This document shows positions 4,463-40,459 of a stretch of 64,000 nucleotides of DNA, piece by piece. The stretch spans positions 28,960 to 92,959 of the forward strand of contig CAISJV010000029.1 in assembly GCA_903885795.1 (NCBI GenBank), written 5' to 3'. How positions within the stretch are numbered: the first letter of the stretch is position 1; each line of letters opens with the position of its first letter. The translations under genes were made by a program, and so were the position numbers. This DNA comes from an uncultured delta proteobacterium (GTDB lineage: Bacteria; Desulfobacterota; Syntrophia; Syntrophales; UBA8958). The notes under the pieces are model-generated. The model ran no database searches. It was not told the origin of the DNA and saw only the letters and a program-made list of their open reading frames with translations.

Positions 4463-4473
4463 AAAGAAAAAAC

Positions 4474-16684: not shown

Positions 16685-18667
16685 TCAGCAAGTTTTCACA
16701 TAGGTGATTGTCGTTGCCTTGCAGCGGCGTTTGGTCTGATCGACAAAACCCAGGGTGAATTTTCCTTCCGGTTTCTGAAAAATATCCAATCCCCGGCCAA
16801 GGATGATTCGCCAACCCGTATCTGCCTCGATCCAACGATCGTGCAGACCTGTTTGAAAACGATAGGTAAGGTTAATGCGATCCTGGCTTAGGCTCTCCTT
16901 TATTTCATTCAATTTCGATGAAGTTTCCTCTTCCTGACGCTTCGTATCTGTTCCCGTTACGAGTTCGATGGCCAAGCCCGCCTCTGATGAACTCAGACTC
17001 TCGCAGAAATTCAGAAAGTTATGAATTTGATAATCATAACGGATAAAAGGATCGACCAACTTAACGCTTTTAGCTCCTTTTAGATAAGGATTGAACAAGC
17101 GGGCATAAGAAATGCCACGCTGGTCTTCAGCGATATTCAATGTGGTCTCGATCGGTTTTCTGTCCAGTGACAAGCTATCAACCGGCTCCTCTGCTTTTTC
17201 TGGCTCCGGTTTCTCTTCCGGATGGGACATTTGAAACTCATCCGGATACTCGCTCTTAATCGTCACCCATTGATATTCCTGATCCAGCCGTGCCAATTCA
17301 TCCCGAATTTGTTGTCGCATCCGGACAGCAGGGTTGACGCAATACTCGACAAACTCCTCATCCGTAACCTGCAGATCAGGAAACAGCAGCTTCAAATAAC
17401 CTTCCGCAATCCGAGCAACGGCCTTGTGATCGCGCATATCCTCGCAGGAAGGGAGACGCAGGCTGTGGGATACATAATCGGCATATTGAAGATCACTTCG
17501 CAACTCGTGTAGGACTTCACTGAAAAAATCACCTTTGAAGCCCAGGCTTTTTGAGGGCGTGTTCTTAGTAATGCGGGGCATAAACCACCCTTCAAGCAAC
17601 CCATGGATGCGATCCACAAAAGCCGATTCCTGCAGAGATGAAGGCAGCTCCTTGAAAATGCCATTTGTCTCATAGAGGGGTCTTCGATCAGGGCCTATCG
17701 TGATATTGCCAAGGATGGCGAATCCGCATTCGGCGGTTCCCATATCCCCGGTGGCCCTTCGATAACGGCCGCTTTCCAGGTACATCTTGAGGGCCGCCAT
17801 AGCCTCGCCGGCCGCATCAGTGTGGATTTTTTGGACCTCATCCACAACGACCACATCGTATCGGGGCATGAGACCGAGTTGCTTGCTTTGACTGTTAAAG
17901 AACAGTGTCGGCGCCGACAGTTTTCCCCCAGGGATAACCGCCGCATAACGGCTGATATTGTCGAATACGAAGGATTTCCCCGTTCCCTTGGGGGCCAACT
18001 CGGCCAGATTGACCCGCGGCTGGACTAAAGGTATGATTCTACTCAGTAAAAGCATCTTTTGAGGAAGGGTATGCGTATCAGGGTTGAATTGGCAGCTCGA
18101 TATAAGCAGATCAATCCATTCGGGAAGAGTAAAATGTTTTCGACATTCCCTGAAATATTTTAGGTCCACCCCCGGACTCTGAAAGGGCTTGAAATCCACC
18201 ATCCAAATCTGTCCTTTTTTAACTTCTTCACCATCGGGAGGAACATAACGCAGGGTCCCAAGTCCCCACATGCCTGTTTTCAGGAGCATGGTATTATCAT
18301 CAATGATTCCCTTCTGAATCATCGCGTTATTCGTATCCAGCACGGGGATGCTCAGTTCATGCGTGTTCTTGGCCAGATTGACGTTGACGCGGAAATCATC
18401 GATGATTTTAACTTCCTCCTGTTCCTTCAGGCGATTGAGAAGGATATTTTTATCCGCTTTCTGGGGCAAGAAAGAGGAGACGATCTTGATGATTTCCTCC
18501 CGCCCTTCCTCCGACAACTTATCCCCATCAGAGAGGAATTGACTGATAATCCATTCCCCCACATACACCGGAATCGCTCGCGCACCAAACCCGGCCTTGG
18601 ACATTAGTCCCTTGTTGATAACCACTTCTCCGTAGTAATCTCGTGCTTTCGCTTCGAATGATTTCAT
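16685..18667 (-). CDS. brxL: BrxL-family MCM-like AAA+ ATPase with a C-terminal MIT_C/PLD-like domain (no Lon protease domain)
   Basis: IPVYVGEW, ELAPKGTGKS, VVVDEV, AFVDRIHG, RDHKAV; C-terminal ISYARLFNPYL..VDPFIR..LHDRWIEADTGWRIILGRGLDIFQ. Confidence 0.88.
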   Translation of the reverse strand: MKSFEAKARDYYGEVVINKGLMSKAGFGARAIPVYVGEWIISQFLSDGDKLSEEGREEIIKIVSSFLPQKADKNILLNRLKEQEEVKIIDDFRVNVNLAKNTHELSIPVLDTNNAMIQKGIIDDNTMLLKTGMWGLGTLRYVPPDGEEVKKGQIWMVDFKPFQSPGVDLKYFRECRKHFTLPEWIDLLISSCQFNPDTHTLPQKMLLLSRIIPLVQPRVNLAELAPKGTGKSFVFDNISRYAAVIPGGKLSAPTLFFNSQSKQLGLMPRYDVVVVDEVQKIHTDAAGEAMAALKMYLESGRYRRATGDMGTAECGFAILGNITIGPDRRPLYETNGIFKELPSSLQESAFVDRIHGLLEGWFMPRITKNTPSKSLGFKGDFFSEVLHELRSDLQYADYVSHSLRLPSCEDMRDHKAVARIAEGYLKLLFPDLQVTDEEFVEYCVNPAVRMRQQIRDELARLDQEYQWVTIKSEYPDEFQMSHPEEKPEPEKAEEPVDSLSLDRKPIETTLNIAEDQRGISYARLFNPYLKGAKSVKLVDPFIRYDYQIHNFLNFCESLSSSEAGLAIELVTGTDTKRQEEETSSKLNEIKESLSQDRINLTYRFQTGLHDRWIEADTGWRIILGRGLDIFQKPEGKFTLGFVDQTKRRCKATTITYVKTC

Positions 18668-18679
18668 AGATTTCCTTCC

Positions 18680-21073
18680 TTACTTCAGATCCTTCAAACT
18701 GAAGCCGCCGGTTATTGCCGTTCGGAACTCTGCTGCGACTTTCATCTCCCATGTCCTTTCTTCACCGGCAATTTCATAAACCCACTCAACGATCAACTCC
18801 TCATGACCGAGGGCCGACTTGTTGAAGTAACAATCCAATTGAACAGTCGAGGCTTTCTCTTTCACCAAGACTGGTAGCATCTGTCCTTTGATTTCCGTAT
18901 CTGGTTTCAGGACAGTAACGCGAAGAATTCGGATATCTTCCGAATTGGGGTTCATCATCTCTATCCGCAAGGAAGAGATTCTCTGGATGTGGAAAACAGA
19001 CCTACCCGTCGCAGCATCAATTCTCAGGTCAGGAAAGCGTACACCGGGTATTTTCCATGCAGCCTTCACGGCTTTGAAGAAAGCCGTCGGAACGATCACC
19101 TCTTCCGGTGTGGCACCCCCATGTGTATATCCTTTCCCAGCCTTGCCAGTGTGAACGGTATGATGGCCCTTGGGAATAAAGAACACATTTTCACTGTCCG
19201 TAAATGGGGGAGTAAAGCGGTATCCCAAATCCCAGAGATTTTCCGGCACCGTATCGGCAATGCCTTTTTCGATTACGGCAAAACGTCGTTTTTCATCGGA
19301 AAATAATTTGTTTTGCGTCTTTGACTCAAAAGTTCGCTTTTCACCATCCAGGATGAAACAAGCGCCGTGGTCGGTCAGAATGTATAGCCCAAAAACTTCT
19401 CTCTGCCCCGGCCAGCGTTCCAGGAGAGTTGATACCATAGCACTGACTCGTGTAAACAGCCGGTACAATTCTCCCTCATGGGTATCACCTTTCATTTCCG
19501 GATCATCATGCAGAATCTCATCGCTGGCAACTAAATTGAGCAACACAACGGCAGGCTCTGTGGACGCTGAGAAATTAGCCAGCTTTTTCAGGTCTGATAA
19601 ATAAGTAACAGTCTTACCGTCCCAGTCGTTCTTTGCTCGCTCTTGGAGGAGCGCCTCATATGTTTTTGTTGGAGGATTCCAGTCTCCACTGAAAAGAACT
19701 GGTTTTACATATTCCGTATCCGTCGGCAGGGGCGCAAAACGATACTCAAGGACATGGCGATGAAAACCAGCTTTCCGCAGGATGTCTTCAAACATCGACC
19801 AGAAGGTTACCGGAAATCCATCGGCCAGAATAATCAGTGAAAGCGTTTCCGTTCGGATTGAATCCTGAAAAGAATGCAGCGCATGAACCAAACTGATTTC
19901 GGCATTCTTATGAATAATAGCATAATCCCGTAGATACCACTCGGTAAATAGGCGAACGACTTCTTCAAGCTCTTCATCATGGTGGCCACTTTTTGTCTGC
20001 CAATACCGGTAAGGTATGTAAGAATCCACCGCCCAGGATACCCACGCCGATGGATTGTCAAGAAACTCCATGTCCTTAAGAGCCGGCCTCTCAGGCGCCA
20101 CCAGGTAATCCAGGGTTCTTAACTCAGCCGTATCCAGTCCCACACATTGACGGAATTTTTCCTTAACGGCGATAATATCTTCAGCGGCAGGGGTAAACTG
20201 GTCGGCTGTCAGAAGACTCTTGATAAGCCTGAATTCCAGAATTAACCGACCTGATGTCATCTGTGAGACTTTCTGGAAGACATCGCTGTTATCAACATCC
20301 GGAGCGATGTCCTTAAAGAACAATTCGATGTGCGTCGTCGCTTCCTCGACAGCGACAAGTTCCAGGGGGAGTTCCTTCAATAAAGTCAGAGGAATGCTCC
20401 TTAACATGTTCGCCCGTGGTAATGGCAAAAGATATTCGAGAAGCTTACCTGGATACAAACCAAGAATTGCATATAGGCTCATATCCCGCCACAGATCTTC
20501 CGCACGGCTGATAAGAAGGGGGATCAAGGCCTTTCCCCAATTTTGCTCGGTTTGCCGCAGCCATATTTGTCCCTGCTCACGAAGGCAACGGTCAAGAATT
20601 GGATAGTGATCAAATAACACCTTTACTTTGTCGCGGTATAGAACAGCCAATATTTCGGCTATATGCTTCCGATCCAATCGTTCCCCGCGAAATGTCGGAC
20701 CCAGAAAATGCCCCAGTAATGCTTCCTCAAATCGGCAAGGGTGTTCATTCTTCACATCCAGATCAAGAAGTTTCTGGGAGACGATATCTTCATCCGACAG
20801 CCACTTGGGGAGGATCACATTCCATGATTCGGCAATAATGAGGCGCGCAGTTTTCTCCACGAAGTCACAAGTCAATTGGATCTGCTCGCAAAATTGCTGC
20901 AACCAGGTAAAGAGGTAGCGCTTCCGTACCCAGATGTTCAGAGAACTTTTATCGGCGGCAATCGTCGTGAGGAAATGGCAGGCCTTCACATAATCGGCGT
21001 CTTTCTCAACCAGAAAAACGCCTTCAGGTAAAGCATAGCCATAATCACCAATGTAGCTGATCTCAAGTTTCAT
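18680..21073 (-). CDS. pglZ: PglZ-domain alkaline-phosphatase-superfamily protein
   Basis: ILADG, APLPTDT, LTDHG, YTHGGATPEEVIVP; overlaps the ATPase stop codon. Confidence 0.88.
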   Translation of the reverse strand: MKLEISYIGDYGYALPEGVFLVEKDADYVKACHFLTTIAADKSSLNIWVRKRYLFTWLQQFCEQIQLTCDFVEKTARLIIAESWNVILPKWLSDEDIVSQKLLDLDVKNEHPCRFEEALLGHFLGPTFRGERLDRKHIAEILAVLYRDKVKVLFDHYPILDRCLREQGQIWLRQTEQNWGKALIPLLISRAEDLWRDMSLYAILGLYPGKLLEYLLPLPRANMLRSIPLTLLKELPLELVAVEEATTHIELFFKDIAPDVDNSDVFQKVSQMTSGRLILEFRLIKSLLTADQFTPAAEDIIAVKEKFRQCVGLDTAELRTLDYLVAPERPALKDMEFLDNPSAWVSWAVDSYIPYRYWQTKSGHHDEELEEVVRLFTEWYLRDYAIIHKNAEISLVHALHSFQDSIRTETLSLIILADGFPVTFWSMFEDILRKAGFHRHVLEYRFAPLPTDTEYVKPVLFSGDWNPPTKTYEALLQERAKNDWDGKTVTYLSDLKKLANFSASTEPAVVLLNLVASDEILHDDPEMKGDTHEGELYRLFTRVSAMVSTLLERWPGQREVFGLYILTDHGACFILDGEKRTFESKTQNKLFSDEKRRFAVIEKGIADTVPENLWDLGYRFTPPFTDSENVFFIPKGHHTVHTGKAGKGYTHGGATPEEVIVPTAFFKAVKAAWKIPGVRFPDLRIDAATGRSVFHIQRISSLRIEMMNPNSEDIRILRVTVLKPDTEIKGQMLPVLVKEKASTVQLDCYFNKSALGHEELIVEWVYEIAGEERTWEMKVAAEFRTAITGGFSLKDLK

Positions 21074-24000
21074 GAATCACTCTTTCCAACCAGAAGCTCA
21101 TGAATAGCCTCACCGAGTTTTTCCCCTACTTCTTTCGTCACCAGGCCGCGTGTGACCCCTTGTTTAACAATCGACTTTAAAACGGTTGTAAATCCCTGAA
21201 GATTATCCGGAAATTTGAATGAGGCCTTCTTGCTTCCGAACAAATCCTGATCCACGGCAACTTCATACTTTTTCGCCTTGTTGACGACCTCCACGGTCAC
21301 TATATCGCTGGCATTGCCGTGCTCATCGAGAGCCCGCATCTTTACAATGACATTGGCCTTATCTTTGACGAGTTCAGCAAGGTCCATCCTTTCACTGATT
21401 CGTATAGCGCCTTCAGATTTCTTCGGGTCTTCACTTGAGGTTGTATAAATGATTTCTTTCGCACCCTTGGGAATAGCAATAACCAGACTTTCCCCTGCCT
21501 CTATTTCATAAGTTTTTGCTTTTATTTCAGGAACAGGAACCTCCGGTTTGGCCTCATCGATCACCGCCTTGGCCTGTTTGATTTTTGCTGCGTAATCCTC
21601 CGTCTGGACGGATGTCCAGTCCGGCACGGGATTGAACTTATAGGCCTTCGGTAGTTTTTTAAAAAGCAGCGTTTTCTTGTCGTCTGATTCAGCTAATTGC
21701 GACAGGAACTCAAAGGCGTCACTCTCATCATATTTTGATGGATTTCGTTGATTGGGATTCAATCCTTTATACCATTCATCAATGGCCGCCTCGCATTCCA
21801 CCTGATCGCCCTTTGCACCGAAGATGGCACAAACCGCCTGGGCAACAGATTTCTGAAGATTCGATAGCCCTGCTTCCAGGCGTTTTACATCAGCAGCGAA
21901 AGCTACGCCGATTTCCTGGGCTTCTTTCTGTAGCATGTCTTTCCCAACGGGATCACTGTTGTAAAGGGCGGGCAATCGGGAAAGGATCAAGTCGAACCGA
22001 TCGATTTGATCCACTTGATCGAGCAATTCCTTGAGCTTCTTCAATCGAGGTTGATCTTCCTTGTCATAGAGATCCATGATCGTAGCTGCCGCGGGAAGCC
22101 CTTGCCACCAGGCCTTCAGCAGTACCGACGCCTCTTCGACAGAGCGAATCTCGCCATGTTTAAGCGGCGGCGCATGGGCAGCCTTTGCAATGGCCTCTAC
22201 AAGGAGGCGTTGTGCATCAGTTATCTGGAATACTTCTACCACAACCTTCGTGGCCGGATCAGCTACGATCCGAACGACATCGTCATAGGAATCTATACGA
22301 ATCTCCGCTGTCTTTGTCGTATCTGCGTAGAAACGTAAACGCTCCCCAAAGGCGCGCACGACATGAGACAGGGCAAGAATCTGAGCTGTTGCACCTGTCC
22401 CGTAAGGCGCACTCCTGGCGTCAATGAGGAATTGCCCCAAAGACAGCGCCTTCCCGGGGGACAGATTTCCGAATTCCTGACACAAGGATTTGAGAATTGG
22501 ATAATGATCGGAAATTTTATCCGGATTGTCTTCGCATGCGAAGTAGGTCAGCATTCCTTCTGTCCCGGTTTTTCTCAGTGCTCCCGCCCCCTTTAGCAGC
22601 ACCTTCTCCAGGTATCGCTTTTCGCCGTGGTTATCCGGATTGCCGTTGTCGATTATTACCCTTTCGGCCTCAAGTAATACCTTTACTGCCTGCTTGAGGG
22701 CAGTATTCTTGCCGGTCCGCCACTTATCGTCATGGCAGGCATTCAGATCGGGATGAGTGATCCGGCATCGTTTCTTGTACAGGTTTTCGCAAAGCTGATC
22801 CGCCGGACGGTGAGCCTGAGAAGGCTTGTCCACGATTACCTTGTCGTCTTTCCCATACCAGCAAGCCTCTTCACCGCTCGTGATTTTACGCAGGATTCGC
22901 TGCAACTGGATGCGATAACCGTCATCGGCGTTTTCAAAGATGTCGCGCAATCTGGATTCAGTTTGGGCGCTGATCTTCATGGCATCGTTTGGCGGCAAGT
23001 AATATCGGCAGGCCTTCACCTTTAGCAGGACGTCCCTGAATGGCTGTGATTCATGGGGAACAGCAACAGCCATATTCTCATACGGGATTCCTTTAACGGC
23101 ATTTTTCGCCAACTGGATATCCGTCTCATTCTCGCAAAGCGCGTAAATAATAGTCCCTTCACTGCCTTGCTTTTCTTTGAACAAACTCTGTTCCCATTCC
23201 TGCTGCATGTCCTTCCACAATTTCTCGCCAAGGTCTTTTGCCCGCACAAACCGTCGGGCAAATCGTTTATCTTCGTTGAAGGCCAGGTTATATTGACTCG
23301 CCTTTAGAAACTCCAGTTCATTAGGATCACCGGCCTCCGCCAGCAGGGCATCGAGTGGGTCTTTCGGGTGCAGCGATTCATCAGTCAGGAAACGGTCAAT
23401 AAGGTCGTATGGGTCTTCGCCGGAACCGGCCGCCAGTTCATAGGTTTTTGACTGCTGACGAAAAAAGATAGCCCCGGATTTGACAAGGGCCTTCAAATGA
23501 CCCTCCACCTTCTTTCTCTCCGGCCCCGCGAGGCAATAGAGACCAAACTGGAGATTTTCAAGCGTTGTGGGAACAACCTGCGAAAGTTCATAGATGAGCA
23601 TGGCGCGCAGAACTGACAGACGTTCCTCCATAACTTCGCCGAACATGTCGCCGCTGTCGGGTATCTTTCGCAGGGCCTCGATACTTGCGTAGTAGCCATT
23701 AACAAGCTGCCGCTGCTTTTCGCGCAACTCCACATTCTTGAGAGATAGCTCTTTCTGGAAGAACTCGAAGAGACGATCAACCGTGTAGAGATTGAGCTTC
23801 CCACCGCCTACGGTAACGTCCGCGTTTTTGATGAAATCGGCGTATGATCCCGCCGCGCCACCCACATCACCCGAGAAAAATGTGAAGGCGCTCCGGGCGT
23901 CCGATCCGATCTCGGAAGAGAGTTTCAAAAGACAGGCCAGGGCGATGGGGTGCATACCGTAGATGTCTTCCAGGACTTTCTCCCGGATTCTCTTCATATC

Positions 24001-25131: not shown

Positions 25132-25293
25132 AATGTGGCGTCATTAGTGATCATCCCATCTCTGGCGGCGCAACTTTCACAAGACAATGCAATTTAATAT
25201 CGAGCACTTACAAAATTACATTACTCCGTACTTGCGCCAATATTGCGCCGAACATACGCTAATCGGCAACGGATATCTGAATAGCATGTCTGT

Positions 25294-25680
25294 TCACATA
25301 ACCTTTTTTTCAATTTCATCCAGAAATGATAATAACTCCGGCGTTTCCAATAGAGCCTCCACGACTTTTTCCCCTTTATGAACATGATGTGGCGCGTTGG
25401 GCATATCCGGGTAATGAGGAGCGTTATCCATGCGAATACGAAGACATCCATCTTTGTCCTGCCAGTGGAAGCTATACTTTTCCAAAACCAATTGCCGGTT
25501 CGATTCGACCATGTAGATGAATAATTCAAAAGAATCACCATTCAAGAGAACGGACTTGACCCGCATCTTGCCATCAACCACGGATATGTCCCGCCGGACG
25601 AGCTGGTAAGATGCAACCGCCGGACTTTCTATCAAACGAACCTCTATCGCATCAAAATACTGTCTTATTTTTTCATTCAC
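25294..25680 (-). CDS. DUF6516/TumE-like toxin-antitoxin-associated protein
   Basis: KYSFHWQ..RMDNAPHYP..PHHVH motif. Confidence 0.75.
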   Translation of the reverse strand: MNEKIRQYFDAIEVRLIESPAVASYQLVRRDISVVDGKMRVKSVLLNGDSFELFIYMVESNRQLVLEKYSFHWQDKDGCLRIRMDNAPHYPDMPNAPHHVHKGEKVVEALLETPELLSFLDEIEKKVM

Positions 25681-25684
25681 GGGA

Positions 25685-25996
25685 TCAACCCTTATTGATC
25701 ATGGAAAGATGGCGTTGAATTTTCTCACGCATATCAATAGTCGCCGCCCATTCAATGAAATCCATGTCATCGCCGATAGATCCCTTATCATAGCGGCTCC
25801 GGAACTCCTCCGAATTCATCTTGTATTTCGCTTCGAAAGCGGCGATCTGGTCGTTTATTCGCAGATGCATATCTCCCATACGCGTGGCTTCCCGCTTCAA
25901 TAATTTATCAATGGCCATTTCCATGACCGAATCGATCATCGATGGATCAACGGAAACATATCTCTCCAAAATCTTAATTTTTTCCAAGACTGTCAT
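25685..25996 (-). CDS. Putative antitoxin partner of the DUF6516 protein
   Basis: FEAKYKMNSEEF..GDDMDFIEW motif; AAGGAG RBS; two-gene arrangement. Confidence 0.65.
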   Translation of the reverse strand: MTVLEKIKILERYVSVDPSMIDSVMEMAIDKLLKREATRMGDMHLRINDQIAAFEAKYKMNSEEFRSRYDKGSIGDDMDFIEWAATIDMREKIQRHLSMINKG

Positions 25997-26167
25997 TTTC
26001 AATTCTCCTTTCTGTTGATACTTCATCCATCACGGTAAAAGGATTTTTTCTTTGATGGCTGCCATATCCTTTATCTGCTATATTACTTTTGCAGAAAGTA
26101 ACGAAAATCGATACTTTCTGCAAAAGATAACTATTACGAACGCTTGTTTTCTTGATCCTCGATCATC

Positions 26168-26905
26168 CTATTCTTTCTGGATCTTACCCGCTCTTGAATC
26201 TACTATACGCAGCAAATGGCTGGCAAGAATGATCATTTCAACCGCTTCCGTCGGGTCTGTAATTGAAACATTTCTGTGGCTTTGCGGATTTTTGTATGAG
26301 CCTATGGCCCCTGCAAATAAGTGCTGCAGAGCCTGCCTCTCACCCTCAGGTAGATTCTTGTCAGTTAACGGTCCGTTATCGACATCAAAAGCCCTCCGCA
26401 TCAATTTTTCACCAATATCGGCAGGTGTAAACTTGCCCGCTTCACGGACCGCAACCTCCACCTCTTTGAAGGACTGAAAAACAGCCGTATCATACTCCCC
26501 GCGTATAAAGGCGGACCACACCTTCTGCGCAATAATCGGATGCAACAGATGTCTTGGCAGAAGATCGCTGTGCCGATAGGAATCCAAACCTGACCAGTCC
26601 TTTATTTGACGTCCCCGCCTGGTAACAAATACCCATTCTCCTCTTTCACCGGGCTTCGGAGCAATCAGTCCTTCCCTTTCAAGCCATACCCAGGCTTCCA
26701 TGAGCGCCCTGCTGATGGCATCTTGAGAGCCTCGTGGATACTCTTGAACAGTGTTTGGCAAACCGAAATTGTGTCGGTTAAGCCCCCCCTCTTCCCTTTC
26801 GTTGATGGAATTCAAGTACTCAAGAACAACCCCTGCCAGCTCTTCAGGCTCAAGAGCCAACAATGTTTCATGATCTGGAATTATATCATAGATTTTTTTA
26901 CTCAT
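26168..26905 (-). CDS. TIGR02391 (Ymh-like) family protein
   Basis: AVFQSFKEVEVAVR, GEKLMRRAF, LFAGAIGSYKNPQSH, EAVEMIILASHLL. Confidence 0.85.
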   Translation of the reverse strand: MSKKIYDIIPDHETLLALEPEELAGVVLEYLNSINEREEGGLNRHNFGLPNTVQEYPRGSQDAISRALMEAWVWLEREGLIAPKPGERGEWVFVTRRGRQIKDWSGLDSYRHSDLLPRHLLHPIIAQKVWSAFIRGEYDTAVFQSFKEVEVAVREAGKFTPADIGEKLMRRAFDVDNGPLTDKNLPEGERQALQHLFAGAIGSYKNPQSHRNVSITDPTEAVEMIILASHLLRIVDSRAGKIQKE

Positions 26906-26913
26906 GATCCCTA

Positions 26914-27288
26914 TTAACCACTCATTGTAGCTTTCAAGTAAGTAGAGGCCAAATCGGCGGCTACCGACTTGACGAGGTCGAATGTCATGGAGATCCCTTT
27001 AGAAATAAAGGAACTCTTGGTTTTTTGCCAAATTGTGTCATTTCGTATGCCATCAAGGAACTCATGGCCATTCCAAGTTAAGCGTAAAGCCCTAAAATCG
27101 TGAGGTCTTCTGCCGAGAGTCTTCGCCATTTTGCCGCTGACAAGCCCCGCCTCCATAAGTAGATCCATATGGTATGATATTTCTTGACCTCTTTCTGATG
27201 GAAAACTGGACAAGCGTAGATAATTACCCGCATCCATTTCTTCAACTATGATCAGTATTTCCCTTATTACGTCCCAGTCACGTTTCAT
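26914..27288 (-). CDS. DUF2513 family protein
   Basis: MKRDWDVIREIL..YHMDLLMEAGLV..LTWNGHEFLDGIR. Confidence 0.85.
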   Translation of the reverse strand: MKRDWDVIREILIIVEEMDAGNYLRLSSFPSERGQEISYHMDLLMEAGLVSGKMAKTLGRRPHDFRALRLTWNGHEFLDGIRNDTIWQKTKSSFISKGISMTFDLVKSVAADLASTYLKATMSG

Positions 27289-27313
27289 GGCATCTCGCAT
27301 ATTAAATAGAAAT

Positions 27314-27802
27314 TTATTCCCATGACTTAAGTATCTTTTTGATTTCTTTATCAATCTCATTGACAGTCAGGAAAAGCTCTTTCTCTATGAAATTAGTACA
27401 ATCTACCTCACCTATAAGATCAGGACTAGTAAGACATATATATCTCTCTTCAAGTATCTCAATTCTTTCAATAATATATTTGTTGTAATATGGCATATTT
27501 CTTAGAATATGATCGCGGTATATCGTTTTCATAATTCGTTTAAAATCGTCTTTTTTATATTCCGCTGCCGGGAATGTCGAGTTTTGAATGTCCTTAACAA
27601 AAACTATCAGATCCTTGAAAGCCTCTATGCGGTCTTTATCATGTATACGAACCCTCTCAAGCTTTATAGGCAGATTTCGCAGAATAATGTCTTTTAATAT
27701 CGCACCTGCTGCACCGATAATCACACCTGCCAAGGCGAATAATCCGTTTATAATAGCAGGATCGAGACCTTTACTTATTTGTCCGGTATCTGGCATGCAC
27801 AT
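27314..27802 (-). CDS. Hypothetical protein with N-terminal TM helix
   Basis: LFALAGVIIGAAG TM segment; AT-rich; co-oriented within the defence operon. Confidence 0.6.
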   Translation of the reverse strand: MCMPDTGQISKGLDPAIINGLFALAGVIIGAAGAILKDIILRNLPIKLERVRIHDKDRIEAFKDLIVFVKDIQNSTFPAAEYKKDDFKRIMKTIYRDHILRNMPYYNKYIIERIEILEERYICLTSPDLIGEVDCTNFIEKELFLTVNEIDKEIKKILKSWE

Positions 27803-27853
27803 TCCTCATTAATTATAAATGCTTCTGGCACTTCGCACCAATTCCTTCAGTGC

Positions 27854-30800
27854 TCATATCAGGGATGCGATACGGTCGTATTCCTCCAGACATTTGCGTT
27901 TGGATATGAATTCGCCGAACGCTTGTTCTTCCTTGCGTTTCATGACGGGAAAGGTGTCGATGATGTAAGCGAATTCGTCACGGGTCAGGCCGAAAAGATG
28001 AGCAACATAGGCATCTATCTCCGCACGCAACTGCGCTCGGTCGCCCGTGTCTCGGCGGTCACCCGTACGGTCATAGGCTCCGCTGGCGGCCTTCCATTCC
28101 TGGGTAAGATTCATGGCTTCGTCCCGCAAGCGACGTCGGACTTGCTGCTCGTGGGTCGGACCATAGGTGTCGATGGGGGCAGCCTCGGGATACCATATAT
28201 TCCCTTCTTGGTATTGCTGACAGAACACCCTTTCCCAAAACAGCGCGAAATCACTCGTTGTACATATCAACCTAAGAGCCCGTCCTACTATTGCACTAAA
28301 ATAAAAAGATGCATCTGTTAATCTAGGCATTGGCAATTGGTTAAGGATAAATACATTTAGATTTGTTGATATTTTCATTCTCATCAACCAGTCATAACAG
28401 AATGAATTGAACAAACTTACAACGAAAATCATTTGCGCGTAAGAGTAATGGGATATTTTCCATCGATTATCAATAGCATCCTTCAAGAGAACATCTTTAT
28501 TGTATTCCCATGGGATTGAAGTAAATAATGAGTTACCGCAGCATACACTCGATGGCAAAACGGTAGATATCAACGCGCGCTCATTCGTACTTGCGGCTAT
28601 TGCTCGAACACCAAATCGGAACTCAGTGAAGGGTAATGGGATTGGTTGTATTAATTTTGCAACTGACTTTCCCAGTACAGAATTCTTGCCAATGTGAGCC
28701 ATTTCCTTTGATCTAAGGTACTGCTCAGCATCTCGTTTCTCCACCTCCCGGCTATTCGATGAAAATAGATGATCAAACTGATTGATCATTTTCCCTTCAT
28801 ATAGGACGTACCCATCAACATTTTGCACAAACATAGAACTTTGATGCGTCATATTGAATTCAACGGATAGAAGAGGAAATCTCCATGGGAGAGAAGCGTC
28901 TGTATTTCCCAAGAGAGGAAAGTCTGCGTAAATTTTACCAGCGATTTCAATATCGCGTTGGGCATTGAATTCTGTTAAGCTCAGAGAATCGGGAGAGAAT
29001 CTAACAATATCTTCTGGCTTCAGTATAATAGCTCGTTTCTCAATTGCAGGTAGTGTCTCAGGATCGTGTTGCATGAATGCACATCGAATATTTGGATTAG
29101 ATTGGTCTTTTACAATGCACAGTGTTATGAACTTGAACTGATTATGGACTGATTTGAATACTACTGGAAATCGGTTCTCAAAACAGTAGATTGATTCAAT
29201 AGTACGTGTGTCAAAAAAGAACTCCCTAAGTCCTTTGGTAGCAGAATCTGAATAGAATCCAGCAGGCAGGATAATTCCAATTCGTCCGTGAGGTCCCAAA
29301 CAATGGAAGTCCCTTTCTACGAATAGTTTATATAAATTGCTTCCAGGGGGCTTTATATCCTGGTGTGCATAATCTGGATGATTCTGGAAGAAACAAGCAG
29401 CTTCATAGAACAGCGATTGATATTCATGCCAGGCCTGTTTTATATTTAAATCCTTGCATAATTCCTCTGCCCGCTTCCCGGCTTCTGTTTTTGTTAGTGT
29501 TCTAAATGAAGGATCATAAGAAGAGAAGAATTCTTGTGTTTTGGGATTCCATGTATCCCACGGCGGATTGCCGACTGCCGCGTCGAAACCGCCAATCTGC
29601 TCGTTGAAGACGTCGGGAAACTCCAAGGCCCAGTGGAAAAAGTGATGCCGTTTGGTGAGTGCCTTCACCTTCTCGTGCAGTTCCAATTCATTCACGGACA
29701 CAGGCCGTTCGCCGTGAGACAAGCGGAGGAAAATATCCCGGTAATCATCCGGTTTGATTACGTCGTCCATAAGGTAGGCCGTAGATAAATCGGCCAAGGG
29801 GAGCAAGGGATTGATTTTCCCTGCCATCACCTCTTCGTGCATCTCTTTCTGTCTGTCCGTATCGTCCTCGGCAACCTGGGAGATGGATTGCATGGTTTGG
29901 GCGGCCTGCCGATAGGCTTCCGTCAAATCCTTCAGTAGGGGCAGTTCTAATTGTCTCTTCGCGTTCTTGCGTTTCTTCTTGGCTTCCTGATTACGTTCCG
30001 GGATCTTCTCAAGTTGGGAAAGGGAACGGATGCCGATGAGGCTATTGCCACAGCGCAGATGATGATCGAGGAAGGTCAGTTTGTGATCGCGCGCAAAACC
30101 GTTTAGCCAGAGAGAAAGCTTGGCCAGGTGGACGGCTAAGGGATTCAAGTCCACGCCGTAGAGGCAGTGACGGGTGACTAGGCGACGCCAGACGTTCGGC
30201 TCACAGTTCACCGGGGAAGCCATGCCCTCGACGATGGGGATCTCTGCGAACAGGCTAACGATGAAGTCTGTGAGCTGGTTGGCGGCGTTTACGAGAAAAT
30301 GGCCACTCCCCATCGCAGGGTCGCAGAGTTTGAAGCAAAGGATGACTTCCCGGACGAAACGCTCAACCAGGGCTATTGCCGATTGGGTAGCTCCCCGCCG
30401 GATCGTGGCGTCATGACCGGTTTTCGCCTGATGGCTGAAAAGATTGAAGCGCTCCCGGCAGTTATTTTCGAAGCGGTCACGCAGCGGACTGATAATAGCC
30501 TTGGCGTTGAGAAAATGGACCAAGCTCTCCGGGGTGTAATAAGAGCCGGTCTGCTTACGCTCCAGGGCTGATTCACCGAAATAGACATCACCCTTACGGA
30601 TGATTCCGTCTCCTTTCTGACGCGTCGTCCCCGAGGCAAGAAGGATCTCTACACCCTTTTTCGACCGGCGGCGCAGGCGATCCGCATCGGCTAGAGTCAC
30701 GCTGAATTCCAGGATCGTCTCGTACATTTCACCCAAGTGGCGCACTTCCAGATCCCGGTAGGGTATCCGATATTCCTTTTCCGTGTTGCTGTCGTGGGGT

Positions 30801-31909
30801 TCCACCCAGGCCATGAGGTAGAGGGCACGGGCAAGGAAGTCGTTCCGGAGCTGCTCCTTACCGAGAAACTTCTCAGCCTCGTCGTCGAACAGCCCGCCGT
30901 TATATCCCATGATCCCGTATTCCGGATCGCCTTCGTTGACGGCCCCGATGAGCCCCTTCAGATGCTTCCAGAGGTCGTAGCCTTCATCATCCGTCCGTTT
31001 TCTCCATTGAAGACGATGAGCCTCAAGGCAGAGGGCGCCGATGGAATGTTTAGCATAGATTTCCCGCTTTTCGATCTGAGAGGGCAGGAGGCTCCGGGCT
31101 TCGGCATAGAAGAGGAACAGGCAGCGGTAAAGGAGTTTGACGGCGCTTTCAAAGATCTCCCGCCGTTCGTCATCGGTGTATTCGTCGCCCTTCCGGGGCG
31201 TTTCGGAGATGAAGCCGTTGCAGAGATATTGGAGGACTTCGTCAATCTGCTCCAGAAGCGGTGATTTGACCTTGTCTTCGAGGATCTTTTCCGAGGCCTT
31301 TATGTCCTGATCCAGTCGGCAATTATAAACCCCGTGAGCACGGGCGTCCTTCTCCCATCTATCCGTTTCTTCACCATCTATCTCCGCTGTGAAGGAATCG
31401 ACATGGAAAAAACGCTCAAATAAGGCGTATTCCTTCTCATCGTTCTGTGCGAGGGCCTCCGCGAGATTAAGCTCTACATATTCCTCAAAAGGCTTGCCGG
31501 TGCGGGTTGTATAGAGACGCCATTTTCCGCCGTCCGTTAGAATGCCCCAGTTCAGTTTGCGGTCTCTCAGTTGGGCGATCAGTTTACCAGGCCAGAAACG
31601 GCCGATAGACACATCATCCAGGTCCGCTCCCGGTTCGATAAGATAGAGGACTGAGACAGTATTGGAAAAACTGTAATCTTCATAAAGAAGGTAAACACCA
31701 GGAGCGTCGGGTTGGCCGGGCGGCACGAAAGAAAGATAACTGAGCGCTTGTTTGATATGGGTGCTCCAGATGGAATCAGCGCTTGAGCGGTCACTATGCT
31801 GCTGGGCATGGTAAAGGGTAGCCATACGACCCTGGCCGGCGTCGTCCAGTTCCAACTCGGAACGAATCTTATCAATAAAAAGAGTGCTAAAGAGCCCGTT
31901 ATTTCTCAT
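27854..31909 (-). CDS. pglX: PglX/Eco57I-type N6-adenine DNA methyltransferase
   Basis: WGILTDG, LGEMYE, RKQTGSYYTP, DPAMGSGHFL (motif I), YGVDLNPLAV, FHWALEFP, GNPPW (motif IV), C-terminal target-recognition region. Confidence 0.88.
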   Translation of the reverse strand: MRNNGLFSTLFIDKIRSELELDDAGQGRMATLYHAQQHSDRSSADSIWSTHIKQALSYLSFVPPGQPDAPGVYLLYEDYSFSNTVSVLYLIEPGADLDDVSIGRFWPGKLIAQLRDRKLNWGILTDGGKWRLYTTRTGKPFEEYVELNLAEALAQNDEKEYALFERFFHVDSFTAEIDGEETDRWEKDARAHGVYNCRLDQDIKASEKILEDKVKSPLLEQIDEVLQYLCNGFISETPRKGDEYTDDERREIFESAVKLLYRCLFLFYAEARSLLPSQIEKREIYAKHSIGALCLEAHRLQWRKRTDDEGYDLWKHLKGLIGAVNEGDPEYGIMGYNGGLFDDEAEKFLGKEQLRNDFLARALYLMAWVEPHDSNTEKEYRIPYRDLEVRHLGEMYETILEFSVTLADADRLRRRSKKGVEILLASGTTRQKGDGIIRKGDVYFGESALERKQTGSYYTPESLVHFLNAKAIISPLRDRFENNCRERFNLFSHQAKTGHDATIRRGATQSAIALVERFVREVILCFKLCDPAMGSGHFLVNAANQLTDFIVSLFAEIPIVEGMASPVNCEPNVWRRLVTRHCLYGVDLNPLAVHLAKLSLWLNGFARDHKLTFLDHHLRCGNSLIGIRSLSQLEKIPERNQEAKKKRKNAKRQLELPLLKDLTEAYRQAAQTMQSISQVAEDDTDRQKEMHEEVMAGKINPLLPLADLSTAYLMDDVIKPDDYRDIFLRLSHGERPVSVNELELHEKVKALTKRHHFFHWALEFPDVFNEQIGGFDAAVGNPPWDTWNPKTQEFFSSYDPSFRTLTKTEAGKRAEELCKDLNIKQAWHEYQSLFYEAACFFQNHPDYAHQDIKPPGSNLYKLFVERDFHCLGPHGRIGIILPAGFYSDSATKGLREFFFDTRTIESIYCFENRFPVVFKSVHNQFKFITLCIVKDQSNPNIRCAFMQHDPETLPAIEKRAIILKPEDIVRFSPDSLSLTEFNAQRDIEIAGKIYADFPLLGNTDASLPWRFPLLSVEFNMTHQSSMFVQNVDGYVLYEGKMINQFDHLFSSNSREVEKRDAEQYLRSKEMAHIGKNSVLGKSVAKLIQPIPLPFTEFRFGVRAIAASTNERALISTVLPSSVCCGNSLFTSIPWEYNKDVLLKDAIDNRWKISHYSYAQMIFVVSLFNSFCYDWLMRMKISTNLNVFILNQLPMPRLTDASFYFSAIVGRALRLICTTSDFALFWERVFCQQYQEGNIWYPEAAPIDTYGPTHEQQVRRRLRDEAMNLTQEWKAASGAYDRTGDRRDTGDRAQLRAEIDAYVAHLFGLTRDEFAYIIDTFPVMKRKEEQAFGEFISKRKCLEEYDRIASLI

Positions 31910-31916
31910 GCCAACC

Positions 31917-32384
31917 TCATGTCAGAGCGAGGGTATCTCGCTGATCAACAATAAATGTTTGATCCTTGATTCTGGTAAATATCCATTTAGCCAAAGGCGG
32001 ATGATGTTGCATAACCATTAGCAAGGCCGGGGATTTGTCGCGCATTTCGATCTGGCGGGCAAACTGGTCCACGACATTGGCCTGACTTGCCCACATTGCC
32101 ATGAGAAACTCCAGGCCGGAAACGACGATAATCGGTGACTTAGCGCTCTCCGATAAAAAGCGAAAGAGATCATTTATCGAGAATGTCCCAACATTTTCAG
32201 CAAGCGCTTCATCATTTGCGAAGACATCCAAGAGGTGACTATGAGCGGCACTGGCTTGCCTCGCTAATTCAGCGGCCCAGGCCTTTTGTTCAAGATAGTC
32301 ATGGGTGAAGACGATACAGGCCCTGCCGCGCGGGCGCTGGGAAAGGGATTTTGTCAGTTCTACGGTGTTTACGACTTTATCCAA
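31917..32384 (-). CDS. BrxB/BrxF-like small degenerate P-loop protein
   Basis: 155 aa alpha/beta protein with IIVVSGLEFL resembling a decayed Walker B; sits between the DUF4007-like gene and the methyltransferase. Confidence 0.55.
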   Translation of the reverse strand: MDKVVNTVELTKSLSQRPRGRACIVFTHDYLEQKAWAAELARQASAAHSHLLDVFANDEALAENVGTFSINDLFRFLSESAKSPIIVVSGLEFLMAMWASQANVVDQFARQIEMRDKSPALLMVMQHHPPLAKWIFTRIKDQTFIVDQRDTLALT

Positions 32385-33239
32385 TCAACAGACCTCCTTT
32401 TGCTCAGGTTCATAACCGGTGTCTTCATAATACAACTTCAGAAAGGTCAAGGCGGATGAGCCATCCCGGAGACGCACTTGGTCGAGATCGTGGGTGCTTT
32501 CATATCGCACCCAGCCGTTTTCGTGCAGGCGTTCTATGGCATGTCGAAAGGTCGTTTCATCAAAGCCGAATAAAAGGGATGGCGATCCCTTTGCCTCGGT
32601 GATTTCTCGTACCTGTAGGAGGCGTTCACCGCTGTCGGCGGCATAATCATAGATCATGGCGCAGAGGATTGGCGGTTCCACCTGGAGATGACGCCGCCGG
32701 TATAAGCGGCCATCGCTGTTTTGTTGGAGGATTTCCAGCTTCTTGAAGCTTCTGTTCAGGTAGGCATCTACGATGAACCGGACCTCCTCGTGGAGATGCT
32801 TACCAATTGTCCTGTCTGTATATTGGCCGGAAAGGCTATTTCTTAAACTGGCCAACCAGCCGCTTTCTGTAATCACTCGTTCGGCAAGAAGTATATGGTT
32901 AAAGATTTCATACCAGACCAGGTTTCTATAATGACCGGCCCCTTGATAATGGCACCATTGAAGAGTGCCGATTCTTTCCAGAAAGATGTCATGCACAGCT
33001 ATTGCGGCACCCGTTTGCGTAAGGACTTGCGTTCCCGGTTTGATGAGCCCCAAGGCGCAGCCGATGCTCACAACGCTTTCAATCTGACGGTTGGACAGGC
33101 CCGTGCTTTCCTGGATGTCTTTTCGGAAGATCCGCTTCTCCGCAAGGTGTGCCGCCAGAAAGTGCAACACGCGCGACAACTGCTCGAATTCGAACAGGTA
33201 GCCGTTACTGAGCTGGAGTTTGCGGTTAGGTTGAACCAT
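32385..33239 (-). CDS. DUF4007 (SspB/BrxA-related) winged-helix protein
   Basis: ALGLI..LTQTG..DIFLE..TLQWCHY..WYEIFN and C-terminal HDLDQVRL. Confidence 0.7.
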   Translation of the reverse strand: MVQPNRKLQLSNGYLFEFEQLSRVLHFLAAHLAEKRIFRKDIQESTGLSNRQIESVVSIGCALGLIKPGTQVLTQTGAAIAVHDIFLERIGTLQWCHYQGAGHYRNLVWYEIFNHILLAERVITESGWLASLRNSLSGQYTDRTIGKHLHEEVRFIVDAYLNRSFKKLEILQQNSDGRLYRRRHLQVEPPILCAMIYDYAADSGERLLQVREITEAKGSPSLLFGFDETTFRHAIERLHENGWVRYESTHDLDQVRLRDGSSALTFLKLYYEDTGYEPEQKEVC

Positions 33240-33746: not shown

Positions 33747-34076
33747 TCATTCAAACAGCTCGGCGTGTGTGCCAGCACGAACGAACACAATCAAATCATG
33801 TTTCCCGCTGTCATCAGTCTTGTAGGCCAGCAGAAAGTCGCCACCTATATGGCACTCCCGATACCCTTCCCAGTCACCGCCCAATGGATGATCACGCCAT
33901 TCAGGGCTAAGAGGACCATCATTGGCGATCAGTAGCAGCATCGCCTCTTTGAGACGGTTCATGTCATACCGGCCAGCCCGAGATAATCGTTCCCAATCCT
34001 TTAAGAACGACTTTGCATAGTCCGCAGCACGAGGCAACGGGGCTCGTTTACTTGCTGCTGTTTTTTTCGAGGTCAT
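33747..34076 (-). CDS. yafQ: YafQ-family toxin
   Basis: DHPLGGDWEGYRECHIGGDFLLAY..VRAGTHAELF. Confidence 0.9.
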   Translation of the reverse strand: MTSKKTAASKRAPLPRAADYAKSFLKDWERLSRAGRYDMNRLKEAMLLLIANDGPLSPEWRDHPLGGDWEGYRECHIGGDFLLAYKTDDSGKHDLIVFVRAGTHAELFE

Positions 34077-34326
34077 CGAACAACTCGACAGCGTTACTAA
34101 AGCGAGCGCGGCGCGTACGTGCAATCTCGTCGGCTTCAGCCATTGCTGCACGGGTTTCAGCGTTTGGCACTTTGAGTGCGAATGGCATTTGCTTTTCTGC
34201 AATAACGCGCATCAAAAAAACGCGCACTGCGTCGGAAATGGAGAGGCCCATCGCAGCCAGTGTTTCTGCAGCCTGTGCTTTAATTTGTTCGTCCACGCGG
34301 ACATGAACCATCCTAGTATTAGCCAT
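34048..34326 (-). CDS. dinJ: RelB/DinJ-family antitoxin
   Basis: VHVRVDEQIK..MGLSISDAVRVFL..MPF..PNAETRAAM. Confidence 0.9.
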   Translation of the reverse strand: MANTRMVHVRVDEQIKAQAAETLAAMGLSISDAVRVFLMRVIAEKQMPFALKVPNAETRAAMAEADEIARTRRARFSNAVELFDDLEKNSSK

Positions 34327-34336
34327 AGTATTCTCC

Positions 34337-40431: not shown

Positions 40432-40459
40432 AGTTGCCTCCTCTTAACTGATATGCCGG

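Follow-up and report, generated by a model that had tools for sequence, protein, structure and literature searches.

Type 4-lineage BREX-like proteins and a DNA methyltransferase form one operon, and probably one exclusion system, in an uncultured Syntrophales bacterium

Introduction

How bacteriophage exclusion (BREX) systems block phages and how they read the self mark is still unsettled. Type 4 has been regarded as the sole BREX subtype without a DNA methyltransferase (MTase) and as the sole user of DUF4007 and SspC-like parts. An operon of an uncultured delta proteobacterium (Desulfobacterota; Syntrophia; Syntrophales; UBA8958), in which DUF4007 and SspC-like parts accompany a large MTase, raises the question to which lineage such an operon belongs and whether it constitutes one system or two. 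It is located within a stretch of 64,000 nucleotides (nt) of DNA (NCBI GenBank assembly GCA_903885795.1, contig CAISJV010000029.1, positions 28,960 to 92,959 of the forward strand), here called the window, and had been interpreted in the original prediction, made from the letters of the window, as a hybrid subtype between methylation-based and phosphorothioate-based systems.

The analysis presented here makes it probable that the operon encodes one co-inherited, methylation-based BREX-type exclusion system of the type 4 (Ssp-related) lineage, which in its minimal form consists of six genes. This methylation-based variant of the type 4 lineage is apparently undescribed: in the consulted parts of the main text of PMC12839542 (Rakesh and Krishnan, NAR 2026) and of PMC12914056 (Yuan et al., Nat Commun 2026), no description was found of a DUF4007/SspC-like/PglZ/BrxL operon with a type IIG-like MTase, and the supplements of these papers may list such loci.

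Results

Gene content and organization of the operon

An open reading frame (ORF) check of the window identified 11 co-directional genes on the minus strand, extending from 33239 to 16685. In transcription order, gene 1 (32385-33239, 284 amino acids (aa)) encodes a DUF4007 protein, gene 2 (31917-32384, 155 aa, TTG start) a small degenerate P-loop protein with an AAA+/RecA-like core, and gene 3 (27854-31909, 1351 aa) an N6-adenine DNA MTase with type IIG/IIL architecture. After five inserted genes follow gene 9 (21070-25131, 1353 aa) for an SspC/BrxC-like P-loop ATPase, gene 10 (18680-21073, 797 aa) for a divergent PglZ with an alkaline-phosphatase fold, and gene 11 (16685-18667, 660 aa) for a BrxL in which BrxL_N and an MCM-like AAA+ domain are followed, at the C terminus, by an HKD/PLD-like MIT_C domain. 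The TGA stop codon of gene 1 abuts the TTG start codon of gene 2, which is preceded by AAGGAGG 8 nt upstream, and gene 2 is separated from the ATG of the MTase gene by 7 nt; at the other end of the operon, the ATPase gene shares 4 nt with pglZ, and 12 nt lie between pglZ and brxL. Gene order and tight coupling at both ends are thus as the original prediction had described them. A scan for promoters and terminators was uninformative, with 24 promoter-like sites versus 22.8 expected. Assembled contigs from four runs of one study span the operon; one of them may be the source of the sequence, and they provide no independent support. A single joint from 24804 to 33120 in those contigs was disregarded because just 22 letters matched on one side.

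The proteins shared with BREX systems and their relation to type 4 and Ssp proteins

Families were assigned by scans against Pfam, PADLOC hidden Markov models (HMMs), NCBIfam and PHROGs, 12 ORFs being scanned in the first three. Among the proteins of the operon, BrxL alone passes a curated NCBIfam BREX cut-off (TIGR02688, 445 bits versus 329), and its Pfam matches are BrxL_ATPase (5e-100), BrxL_N (5e-28) and MIT_C (1.6e-44). Walker A (APKGTGKS), the DE of Walker B and an HxRxxxxD motif (LHDRWIETD in the window) are kept in 26 family members. The spacing of H, R and D within MIT_C is the same as in BrxL-HKD of type 1, and section 19 of PMC12839542 calls a BrxL tail with this motif the 'HRD' form. 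The ATPase matches SspC of PADLOC at 1.9e-33, well ahead of BrxC (7.8e-14); it has no Pfam match and reaches 14.6 bits with NCBIfam BrxC (cut-off 400). Its Walker A motif GSYGTGKS (residues 71-78) is fully invariant in 21 family members, as are D and E of its Walker B motif VLFDEF (259-264). Matches of PglZ are weak (PADLOC 3.7e-9), its best NCBIfam model being BREX-4 PglZ with 28.3 bits versus a cut-off of 140. Relatives of this PglZ carry the precomputed assignment PF08665, residues D418, T453, T567-D568-H569-G570 and H651-G652-G653 are invariant in 25 sequences, and there is a weak match (2e-4) to the solved PglZ 9zn5_B.

The gene 1 product is recognized by Pfam DUF4007 (1.4e-15, 57.6 bits versus a cut-off of 27) and, in PADLOC, by C-terminal positions 637-777 of BrxP (2e-10) and by SspB (4e-9). 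In 7 related loci, an orthologue is encoded at the corresponding position. There is no match to Pfam BrxA (PF08849), and hhalign against an alignment of type 1 BrxA gave a probability of 7.9%, so that gene 1 does not encode a canonical BrxA. In section 20 of PMC12839542, DUF4007 was modelled as a BrxA-like triple helix-turn-helix DNA binder. A related DUF4007 protein of 456 aa (L092, positions 1995-3365, on the contig shared with L010) carries an N-terminal UPF0758_N/HhH extension, so that the architecture of the DNA-binding component is variable within the family.

The gene 2 product had originally been described as BrxB/F-like. It matches no family in Pfam, PADLOC, NCBIfam or PHROGs, a sequence search of the PDB yielded nothing usable, and all 39 protein clusters of its family are unnamed. 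Its AlphaFold2 (AF2) model, with a predicted local distance difference test (pLDDT) score of 92.5, contains a five-stranded core of the P-loop/AAA+ type. This core was matched in Foldseek by ATAD2, FtsH, ORC and DnaA (E about 1e-3) and in VIA by generic AAA+/P-loop cores at middling Z scores of 6-7.8; no chain of BrxB or BrxF was among the listed fold matches, the lone BREX entry there being chain A of 9zll (Z 6.0). In the family alignment, Walker A and Walker B are eroded. When compared by hhalign with small P-loop proteins of related loci of the type 4 lineage, which keep GxxxxGK[ST] and DE, a probability of 72% was obtained (E 3e-5) with the Walker regions aligned. One of these small proteins matches BrxF at 2.2e-6, which is below the BrxF cut-off. 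The comparison with type 1 BrxB gave a probability of 1%, and Pfam BrxB (PF08747) was not matched. The gene 2 product is the positional counterpart of BrxB/BrxF, and its likeness to them appears to be limited to a degenerate P-loop fold, the remote similarity being to the small P-loop proteins of related loci; the earlier designation holds for the fold and not for BrxB, to which no similarity was detected.

The methyltransferase and its possible nuclease activity

The MTase consists of a restriction endonuclease (REase)-fold N domain, an HsdM-N/PglX-like helical domain, a gamma-class MTase domain, a variable target recognition domain (TRD) and a conserved C-terminal tail, which is the single-chain architecture of type IIG/IIL enzymes. 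It is matched by Eco57I (2.6e-22), N6_Mtase and MmeI_Mtase of Pfam, and in PADLOC by REase_MTase_IIG (4e-99), DrmMI (2e-75) and, at just 6.5e-11, by PglX; with the NCBIfam BREX-1 PglX model 58.8 bits were obtained versus a cut-off of 500. In all 9 members aligned, motif I (DPAMGSGHF) and motif IV (GNPPW) show no variation. For residues 1-520, an AF2 model of moderate quality (pLDDT 70.9) was built from 10 sequences and used in an exhaustive VIA search. Residues 27-203 of this model resemble the nuclease domain of BpuSI (Z 9.7, root-mean-square deviation 3.8, 142 residues aligned) and a fragment of HsdR (Z 8.8), and residues 214-403 the N-terminal helical domain of M.EcoKI (Z 9.2) and residues 2-225 of Salmonella PglX (Z 9.0). 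Foldseek gave nothing at E <= 0.001 with the N-terminal model, the top weak rows being DrdV and BpuSI, and a sequence search of the PDB gave nothing at E <= 0.01 for the MTase and just rows with E >= 0.05 for its profile. A language-model atlas places the MTase near MmeI_N, MmeI_hel and HSDR_N clusters, which serves as a lead only.

The conservation of the REase-fold domain was followed in relatives. Residues 1-520 are matched by 355 protein clusters, and the best 120 relatives are all at least 62% identical. The original prediction had pointed to LIEPG, now located at residues 90-94, where an ExK motif would be expected. Of the 120 relatives, 61 have P at residue 92, 49 have E and 10 another residue; residue 94 is G in 92, with lysine not among the five commonest residues, so that a canonical ExK is not conserved. 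E77, D78, D96, D98, D126, E142 and E146 are kept in 100-120 of the 120 sequences, both counts being taken from sequence.

These data bear on the possibility that the system is as proposed here and the MTase is, in addition, a nuclease with a non-canonical REase site, that is, a type IIG enzyme controlled by BREX-like partners in place of an exclusion carried out by PglZ and BrxL. The REase fold of its N domain, the strong conservation of residues 1-520 and the seven acidic residues would fit such a role. On the other hand, the strand that should bear ExK has P in half of the relatives, with lysine not among the five commonest residues two positions on, the moderate quality of the model does not permit residues to be placed in an active site, and PglZ and the HKD domain of BrxL already supply two candidate nucleases with intact motifs. 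A second activity of this kind is therefore considered rather unlikely, and a BREX-type system in which the MTase marks and PglZ and BrxL exclude is preferred.

The last approximately 100 residues of the MTase (window 27854-28200) are almost invariant across the family and could serve as a docking element for partner proteins, whereas the approximately 450 residues that precede them are the most variable part of the operon. In two related loci the gene is interrupted: in L013 a DDE transposase (4224-5009) splits it, and in L024 it is present in two overlapping frames (1196-1370), suggesting a frameshift or an assembly error.

Recurrence and co-inheritance of the six genes

PglZ has 25 clusters of close relatives in a set of 5.8 billion proteins, and a scan of one genome per species with the PglZ alignment yielded 45 loci. 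The PglZ relatives of L001-L030 are 31-72% identical to that of the window and of full length where the contig allows; as L018 and L019 are the same contig of 27,797 bp, 29 distinct loci remain. This contig is filed under two metagenome-assembled genomes (MAGs), labelled Desulfopila and Cytophagaceae, and the taxon labels of loci should accordingly be read with care. According to these labels about eight phyla are represented, namely Syntrophales and other Thermodesulfobacteriota, Planctomycetota, Pseudomonadota (Arenicellales), Latescibacterota, Omnitrophota, Verrucomicrobiota/Kiritimatiellae, Lentisphaerota and Gemmatimonadota, and the loci come from two complete chromosomes, one single-cell genome and MAGs.

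When the eleven proteins of the window were used in tblastn searches, the same order of core genes was found wherever the related loci reach. The ATPase, PglZ and BrxL, including its HKD tail, are encoded in every locus that reaches them, genes 1 and 2 are present wherever the sequence extends far enough, and the MTase gene is located upstream in 15 of the 16 loci in which this region is sufficiently covered, the copy of L001 lying just outside the fetched flank. The full six-gene set is present in 7 loci besides the window. In four loci the MTase and ATPase genes are 29, 58, 140 and 164 bp apart, and the three shortest distances show that the six genes form a contiguous operon without an insert. 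L021 and L018 are examples of the insert-free form. The original idea of a hybrid subtype therefore holds with respect to the joining of type 4-lineage parts with an MTase, and the locus is not a single hybrid but belongs to a widely spread, conserved clade.

The proteins also diverge together. Pairwise identities of the ATPase and PglZ are closely correlated (Spearman rho 0.92), and residues 1-769 of the MTase track the divergence of the ATPase (rho 0.68, 28 pairs), the identities to the nearest relative being 0.74 for these MTase residues and 0.75 for the ATPase. In the phylum of the window, BrxL is found at an identity of at least 74% in 4 of 401 sampled genomes, the window's own included, and it is absent from a genome of the same genus and from one of the same family; this patchy occurrence indicates an accessory island. 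Among 1.84 billion, the PglZ profile retrieves 673 representatives at E <= 1e-3, 372 at E <= 1e-10 and 162 at E <= 1e-30. With 162 PglZ representatives and the 355 MTase clusters, both being protein-level counts, the family is not rare. Relatives that bear a name are called hypothetical protein or type I/Eco57I methylase; taken together with the scores below cut-off, such labels make it likely that model-based annotation misses or mis-types these loci.

A search was also made for 3'-phosphoadenosine 5'-phosphosulfate (PAPS) reductase. PF01507 had no match in the genome of the window (100% complete, 95 contigs), whereas the control was positive in 14 of 14 genomes, and tblastn with BrxP queries matched none of the loci of the family. 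Cysteine desulfurase is absent among the operon proteins, no genome-wide search having been made for it, and no helicase domain was detected among the 12 ORFs scanned. The absence of these three functions, part of the original prediction, is in agreement with these results.

A different explanation would be that two independent systems are present, a self-sufficient type IIG restriction-modification (R-M) enzyme having been inserted into a type 4-like BREX/Ssp remnant that lost its PAPS reductase. Consistent with this, the best models of the MTase are type IIG REase-MTases, its N domain has the nuclease fold of BpuSI and HsdR, its C-terminal part diverges independently of the ATPase, the locus is a hotspot for insertions (see below), and Yuan et al. 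caution in PMC12914056 that MTases next to brx/dnd genes may act independently. However, the MTase is encoded at the same position across phyla in all but one of the judgeable loci, its gene and gene 2 are coupled in translation, the divergence of its residues 1-769 follows that of the ATPase and a canonical ExK is not conserved; furthermore, true hotspot cargo differs in every locus, whereas the MTase never does. As neither the genome nor the flanks of related loci contain a PAPS reductase, the remaining genes would, in the case of two systems, be left without a marking enzyme in any member of the family. Two independent systems are thus improbable, and the data are better accounted for by one co-inherited system.

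Phylogenetic position and comparison with defined defence systems

Reference loci were typed with curated NCBIfam models and the others by layout. For type 1, L081 and L082 (BrxL-HKD) and L087 and L088 (BrxL-Lon) were used, together with L080, L089 and L090, whose labels rest on gene layout, the length of BrxL and matches to Pfam BrxA/BrxB and not on NCBIfam. For type 4 (brxPCZL), L039, L084 and L086 pass the BREX-4 PglZ model, and L041 and L043 were assigned from Pfam PAPS_reduct and DUF4007 in BrxP plus layout. Group C comprises the cyanobacterial and Ktedonobacteria loci L032-L037 and L042, which encode a stand-alone DUF4007 protein, a small P-loop protein, an ATPase, PglZ and a short BrxL and have cysteine desulfurase and PAPS-reductase-like genes near their operons; it fits the sspBCDB-brxCZL and dndBCD-brxCZL islands as presented by Yuan et al. 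(PMC12914056). Group B, from the Bacteroidales MAG L031, has the order MTase, DUF4007 protein, small P-loop protein, ATPase, PglZ and short BrxL. By tblastn this order was also found on the Abditibacteriota plasmid pIAD-21 (L094, AP024153.1, 88508-101158), where all genes are annotated as 'hypothetical protein' and which was not included in the trees. The MTases of L031 and L094 are homologous to that of the window (29-30% identity), and from the occurrence of a homologous MTase in another gene order it follows that the use of an MTase predates the family of the window.

Maximum-likelihood trees were calculated for BrxL residues 1-480, PglZ and the ATPase by quick searches with LG+G4 and with the Shimodaira-Hasegawa-like approximate likelihood ratio test (SH-aLRT) as the only support measure; types 2, 3, 5 and 6 and true SspC were left out. 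All three trees have the topology (type 1),(type 4,(C,(B, family of the window))). The family of the window is monophyletic with 99-100 SH-aLRT in the three trees, and support for the deeper nodes is 95-100 in the BrxL and ATPase trees. The approximately unbiased (AU) test rejects a union of the family with type 1 (BrxL, p 3e-78; ATPase, p 1.6e-4). The phylogenies of ATPase, PglZ and BrxL that had been proposed along with the original prediction, here with types 1 and 4 and the loci of groups B and C, therefore place the family on the side of type 4, and trees, HMM scores and AU test agree on the combination of DUF4007 and Ssp/type 4-style parts with an MTase.

One further locus, L085 (G207:C17), encodes a 300-aa protein, a small protein, an ATPase, an N6_N4 (CcrM/DUF1156-like) MTase, two small proteins, a PglZ whose best match is the type 3 model, and a short BrxL. 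In the BrxL tree it is sister to the type 1 clade with 100 SH-aLRT on a long branch flagged as unsure, its joining is weak (76) in the PglZ tree, and it is unresolved in the ATPase tree.

Comparison with defined systems gave the following results. With a PglZ recognized by weak but consistent matches, a BrxC/PglY-type ATPase and a DNA-modifying enzyme in one conserved operon, the locus corresponds to BREX in the broad sense. Pfam BrxA and BrxB are not matched, whereas among the control type 1 loci BrxA was found in 4 of 6 and BrxB in 6 of 6. The curated type 1 models were not reached either, with 14.6 of 400 bits for BrxC, 58.8 of 500 for PglX and 21.9 of 270 or 21.3 of 400 for PglZ; four control type 1 loci had 711-1240 bits for BrxC, 935-1448 for PglX in three (L088, with 344, is below 500) and 922-1011 for PglZ in three (L087, with 176.5, is below 270). 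In the quick trees, the core proteins do not branch inside the type 1 clade. Of the features of type 4, the DUF4007 module with an SspC-like BrxC is present, and a BrxP with PF01507 is lacking in operon and genome, the BREX-4 PglZ model reaches 28.3 of 140 bits (147-773 in control type 4 loci) and BrxL is not short, as it carries MIT_C. From SspABCD, only SspB and SspC are matched. From DISARM, DrmMI (2e-75) is the only Drm match among the 12 ORFs, and the operon proteins have no HerA/FtsK, GNAT or TGT domain as would be expected for BRC. No defined subtype with the gene content and order of the window was found.

That the operon is a very divergent, rearranged type 1 BREX of the known BrxL-HKD variant (A-B-X-C-Z-L instead of A-B-C-X-Z-L) appears highly improbable since, although the six functional roles are the same as in type 1, BrxL-HKD fusions are reported from type 1 only in section 19 of PMC12839542, the HKD domains have the HxRxxxxD motif and the MIT_C family in common and the helical domain of the MTase resembles residues 2-225 of PglX, BrxA and BrxB matches are lacking in Pfam and by hhalign, the type 1 models that are far from being reached by the proteins of the window are mostly far exceeded by those of genuine type 1 loci, and three trees and the AU test separate the two. 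The evidence continues to favour one methylation-based system of the type 4 lineage.

A hotspot for accessory genes between the MTase and ATPase genes

Five genes, all on the minus strand, separate the MTase and ATPase genes of the window. They encode a protein with a hydrophobic N-terminal segment (27314-27802, 162 aa, no family match), a DUF2513 protein (26914-27360, PHROG 585), a Hypoth_Ymh protein with an Rx4H motif (26168-26905), and the antitoxin TumA (25685-26026) and toxin TumE (25294-25680), a pair that is PDC-M44A/B in PADLOC. Hypoth_Ymh proteins are presumably HEPN-like. None of the five genes was found by tblastn in any of the 45 loci, and the gap between the MTase and ATPase genes, 2722 bp in the window, is about 5.9 kb in L001 and 563, 720, 1388, 1662, 2005, 2484, 2719, 2823, 3156 and 3992 bp in ten other loci. 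Its contents differ: AbiEi/AbiEii in L006, L001 and L022, ParE with an antitoxin in L029, Schlafen/AlbA_2 with HATPase_c_4 in L010, HATPase_c_4 with a Fic C-terminal domain in L024, a YhcG-type PD-(D/E)xK nuclease with an AAA_15/21 ATPase in L016, a KAP NTPase in L025, a RiboL-PSP HEPN protein in L027 and transposases in L009 and L013. Just upstream of the ATPase gene on contigs that end before any MTase gene, MazF (L004), a YhcG-type nuclease (L014) and Schlafen/AlbA_2 with HATPase_c_4 (L026) are encoded. The GC content is 0.426 in 26001-28000 of the window and 0.446-0.537 in 2-kb bins over the core genes. The insertion of five genes, as originally observed, is real; these genes are, however, variable accessory cargo at an insertion hotspot and do not belong to the core of the system. 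The junction between the MTase and ATPase genes is a clear hotspot that gathers toxin-antitoxin and abortive-infection cargo, which fits the theme of 'auxiliary and backup effectors' of BREX loci as set out in section 35 of PMC12839542.

Genes in the neighbourhood of the operon

Directly upstream of the operon (33747-34377, minus strand), a YafQ/ParE-type toxin (Pfam 8e-26) is encoded, and an ORF of 109 aa upstream of it probably encodes its antitoxin. On the same strand as brxL and 920 bp downstream of it, a topoisomerase IA-type protein of 729 aa (13574-15763, minus strand) matches the first 640 positions of DpdF in PADLOC (1e-139). It was considered as a member of the system and dropped, as it is present in no related locus; it is probably a separate gene of the island. 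The island context includes a tyrosine integrase, a candidate for PDC-S11 of PADLOC (1e-16), a second copy of it that matches less well (2e-5), and a WYL/WCX regulator, these genes being located at 35190-36029 (plus), 36450-37532 (minus), 43901-44953 (minus) and 46194-47195 (plus). At 38059-41941 (minus strand), a DnaE-like protein of 790 aa with PHP, pol III alpha and finger domains, the usual C-terminal parts of which seem to be missing, is followed by a DUF2779 protein; a homologue of the latter (33% identity) is encoded downstream of brxL in L027, at a distance of a few kb and on the other strand.

Discussion

The operon described here shares with type 4 BREX (brxP-brxC-pglZ-brxL, phosphorothioate) the DUF4007 module and an SspC-like ATPase, its PglZ and BrxL are on the same side of all three trees as those of type 4, and its best NCBIfam PglZ model is that of type 4. 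It differs from type 4 by a 1351-aa N6-methyladenine (m6A) MTase in place of the PAPS reductase, by a DUF4007 protein that stands alone and is not fused to BrxP, by a separate small P-loop gene, whereas section 21 of PMC12839542 reports an iSTAND-PglZ fusion in 64% of type 4 taxa, and by the HKD tail of BrxL, since type 4 BrxL is described without a C-terminal extension in section 19. The HKD tail is a further departure from type 4 that the original prediction had not mentioned. In section 34 of the same paper, 51 of 457 'type 4' taxa are listed without PAPS reductase and without further comment; loci such as those described here may be among them.

After L031, the ssp/dnd-brxCZL islands of Yuan et al. 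(PMC12914056), as represented by group C, are nearest to the family in all three trees and share with it the sub-order of stand-alone DUF4007 protein, small P-loop protein, ATPase, PglZ and BrxL. In contrast to the window, group C has cysteine desulfurase and PAPS-reductase-like genes nearby and no large MTase in the operon, its small P-loop protein keeps Walker A and B, and its BrxL is short. Type 1 (brxA-brxB-brxC-pglX-pglZ-brxL) has six analogous roles, m6A marking, which is predicted for the window, by a large gamma-class MTase with an HsdM-N-like helical domain, an HKD (HxR...D) tail on BrxL in variants, and, according to section 35 of PMC12839542, accessory effectors inside the operon. 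BrxL-HKD fusions are reported there from type 1 only, in 1030 of 2913 taxa (section 19). The window differs from type 1 in the families that fill the A and B roles, in gene order, in core proteins that form a separate clade, and in an MTase that has an additional REase-fold domain and is not PglX. This MTase shares its domain order with type IIG/IIL enzymes (BpuSI, MmeI, DrdV and the Eco57I family), but unlike these it is encoded among five other genes and inherited together with them, has not kept the canonical D...ExK and possesses the conserved C-terminal tail of about 100 residues. BRC, as outlined in section 36 of PMC12839542, consists of DUF4007, a STAND NTPase, a DUF6079/BrxC-like ATPase, PglZ and a universal HerA/FtsK, with or without GNAT and TGT. 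It has in common with the window DUF4007, a small (i)STAND-type P-loop protein, a BrxC-like ATPase and PglZ, coupled to a different marking chemistry, and it differs in that the window encodes BrxL and, as marking enzyme, an MTase.

Several observations weigh against a single methylation-based system of the type 4 lineage. PglZ, the ATPase and the MTase are far under every curated BREX cut-off, so that the assignment to BREX rests on weak HMM matches, synteny and trees. The trees come from quick searches in which long branches were flagged by the tool, the deep nodes of the PglZ tree have just 76-88 support, and the groups compared in the AU test were named after contexts and tree had been viewed. 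L023 is one locus without an MTase, although its ATPase is 5'-truncated as well, 13 of the 29 loci end too early for the presence of the MTase to be judged, and the majority of the related loci are from MAGs. From residue 770 onwards, the MTase shows just 43% identity to the nearest relative, and its divergence is not correlated with that of the ATPase (rho 0.24, Mantel 294 of 2000); this behaviour of the C-terminal 580 residues is the one expected from turnover of the TRD, and the exchange of an independent enzyme would look alike. Finally, the REase-fold domain is the best-conserved part of the MTase and has several near-invariant acidic residues, and a nuclease role is therefore conceivable.

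If the operon is one methylation-based system, as we infer from its parts, its action could be envisaged as follows. The MTase, together with the DUF4007 DNA binder, the small P-loop protein and the large ATPase, would form a complex that marks a short motif of host DNA with m6A, the specificity for the motif being set by the fast-changing TRD. The same assembly would recognize unmarked sites on incoming DNA, for instance that of a phage, and PglZ, in which the metal-site residues are intact, and BrxL, a ring ATPase with an HKD domain of nuclease type, would then block or degrade this DNA in a restriction step. In the window, TumA/TumE, the Ymh protein, the DUF2513 protein and the small membrane protein have landed in the hotspot as accessory cargo.

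A clade with ATPase, PglZ and BrxL of type 4 style and a type IIG-like MTase shows that the core genes are not tied to one mark. It also contradicts section 19 of PMC12839542 on two points, namely that BrxL of the type 4 lineage lacks a C-terminal domain and that HKD tails are specific for type 1. The family and its sister form from Bacteroidales and Abditibacteriota might constitute an unrecognized BREX subtype, in which one effector set, consisting of DUF4007, small P-loop protein, BrxC-like ATPase, PglZ and BrxL, has swapped marks between phosphorothioation, N6-adenine methylation and possibly 7-deazaguanine (BRC); the chances that this is so appear about even. If true, BREX restriction cannot need a dedicated reader of one chemical mark, and 'unmarked' must be sensed by way of the modifying enzyme or the complex that it forms on DNA. 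In that case the family would provide a natural matched pair for testing how BREX discriminates self from non-self, as closely related effectors that work with a sulfur or a methyl mark would allow a direct comparison of which partner senses the modification.

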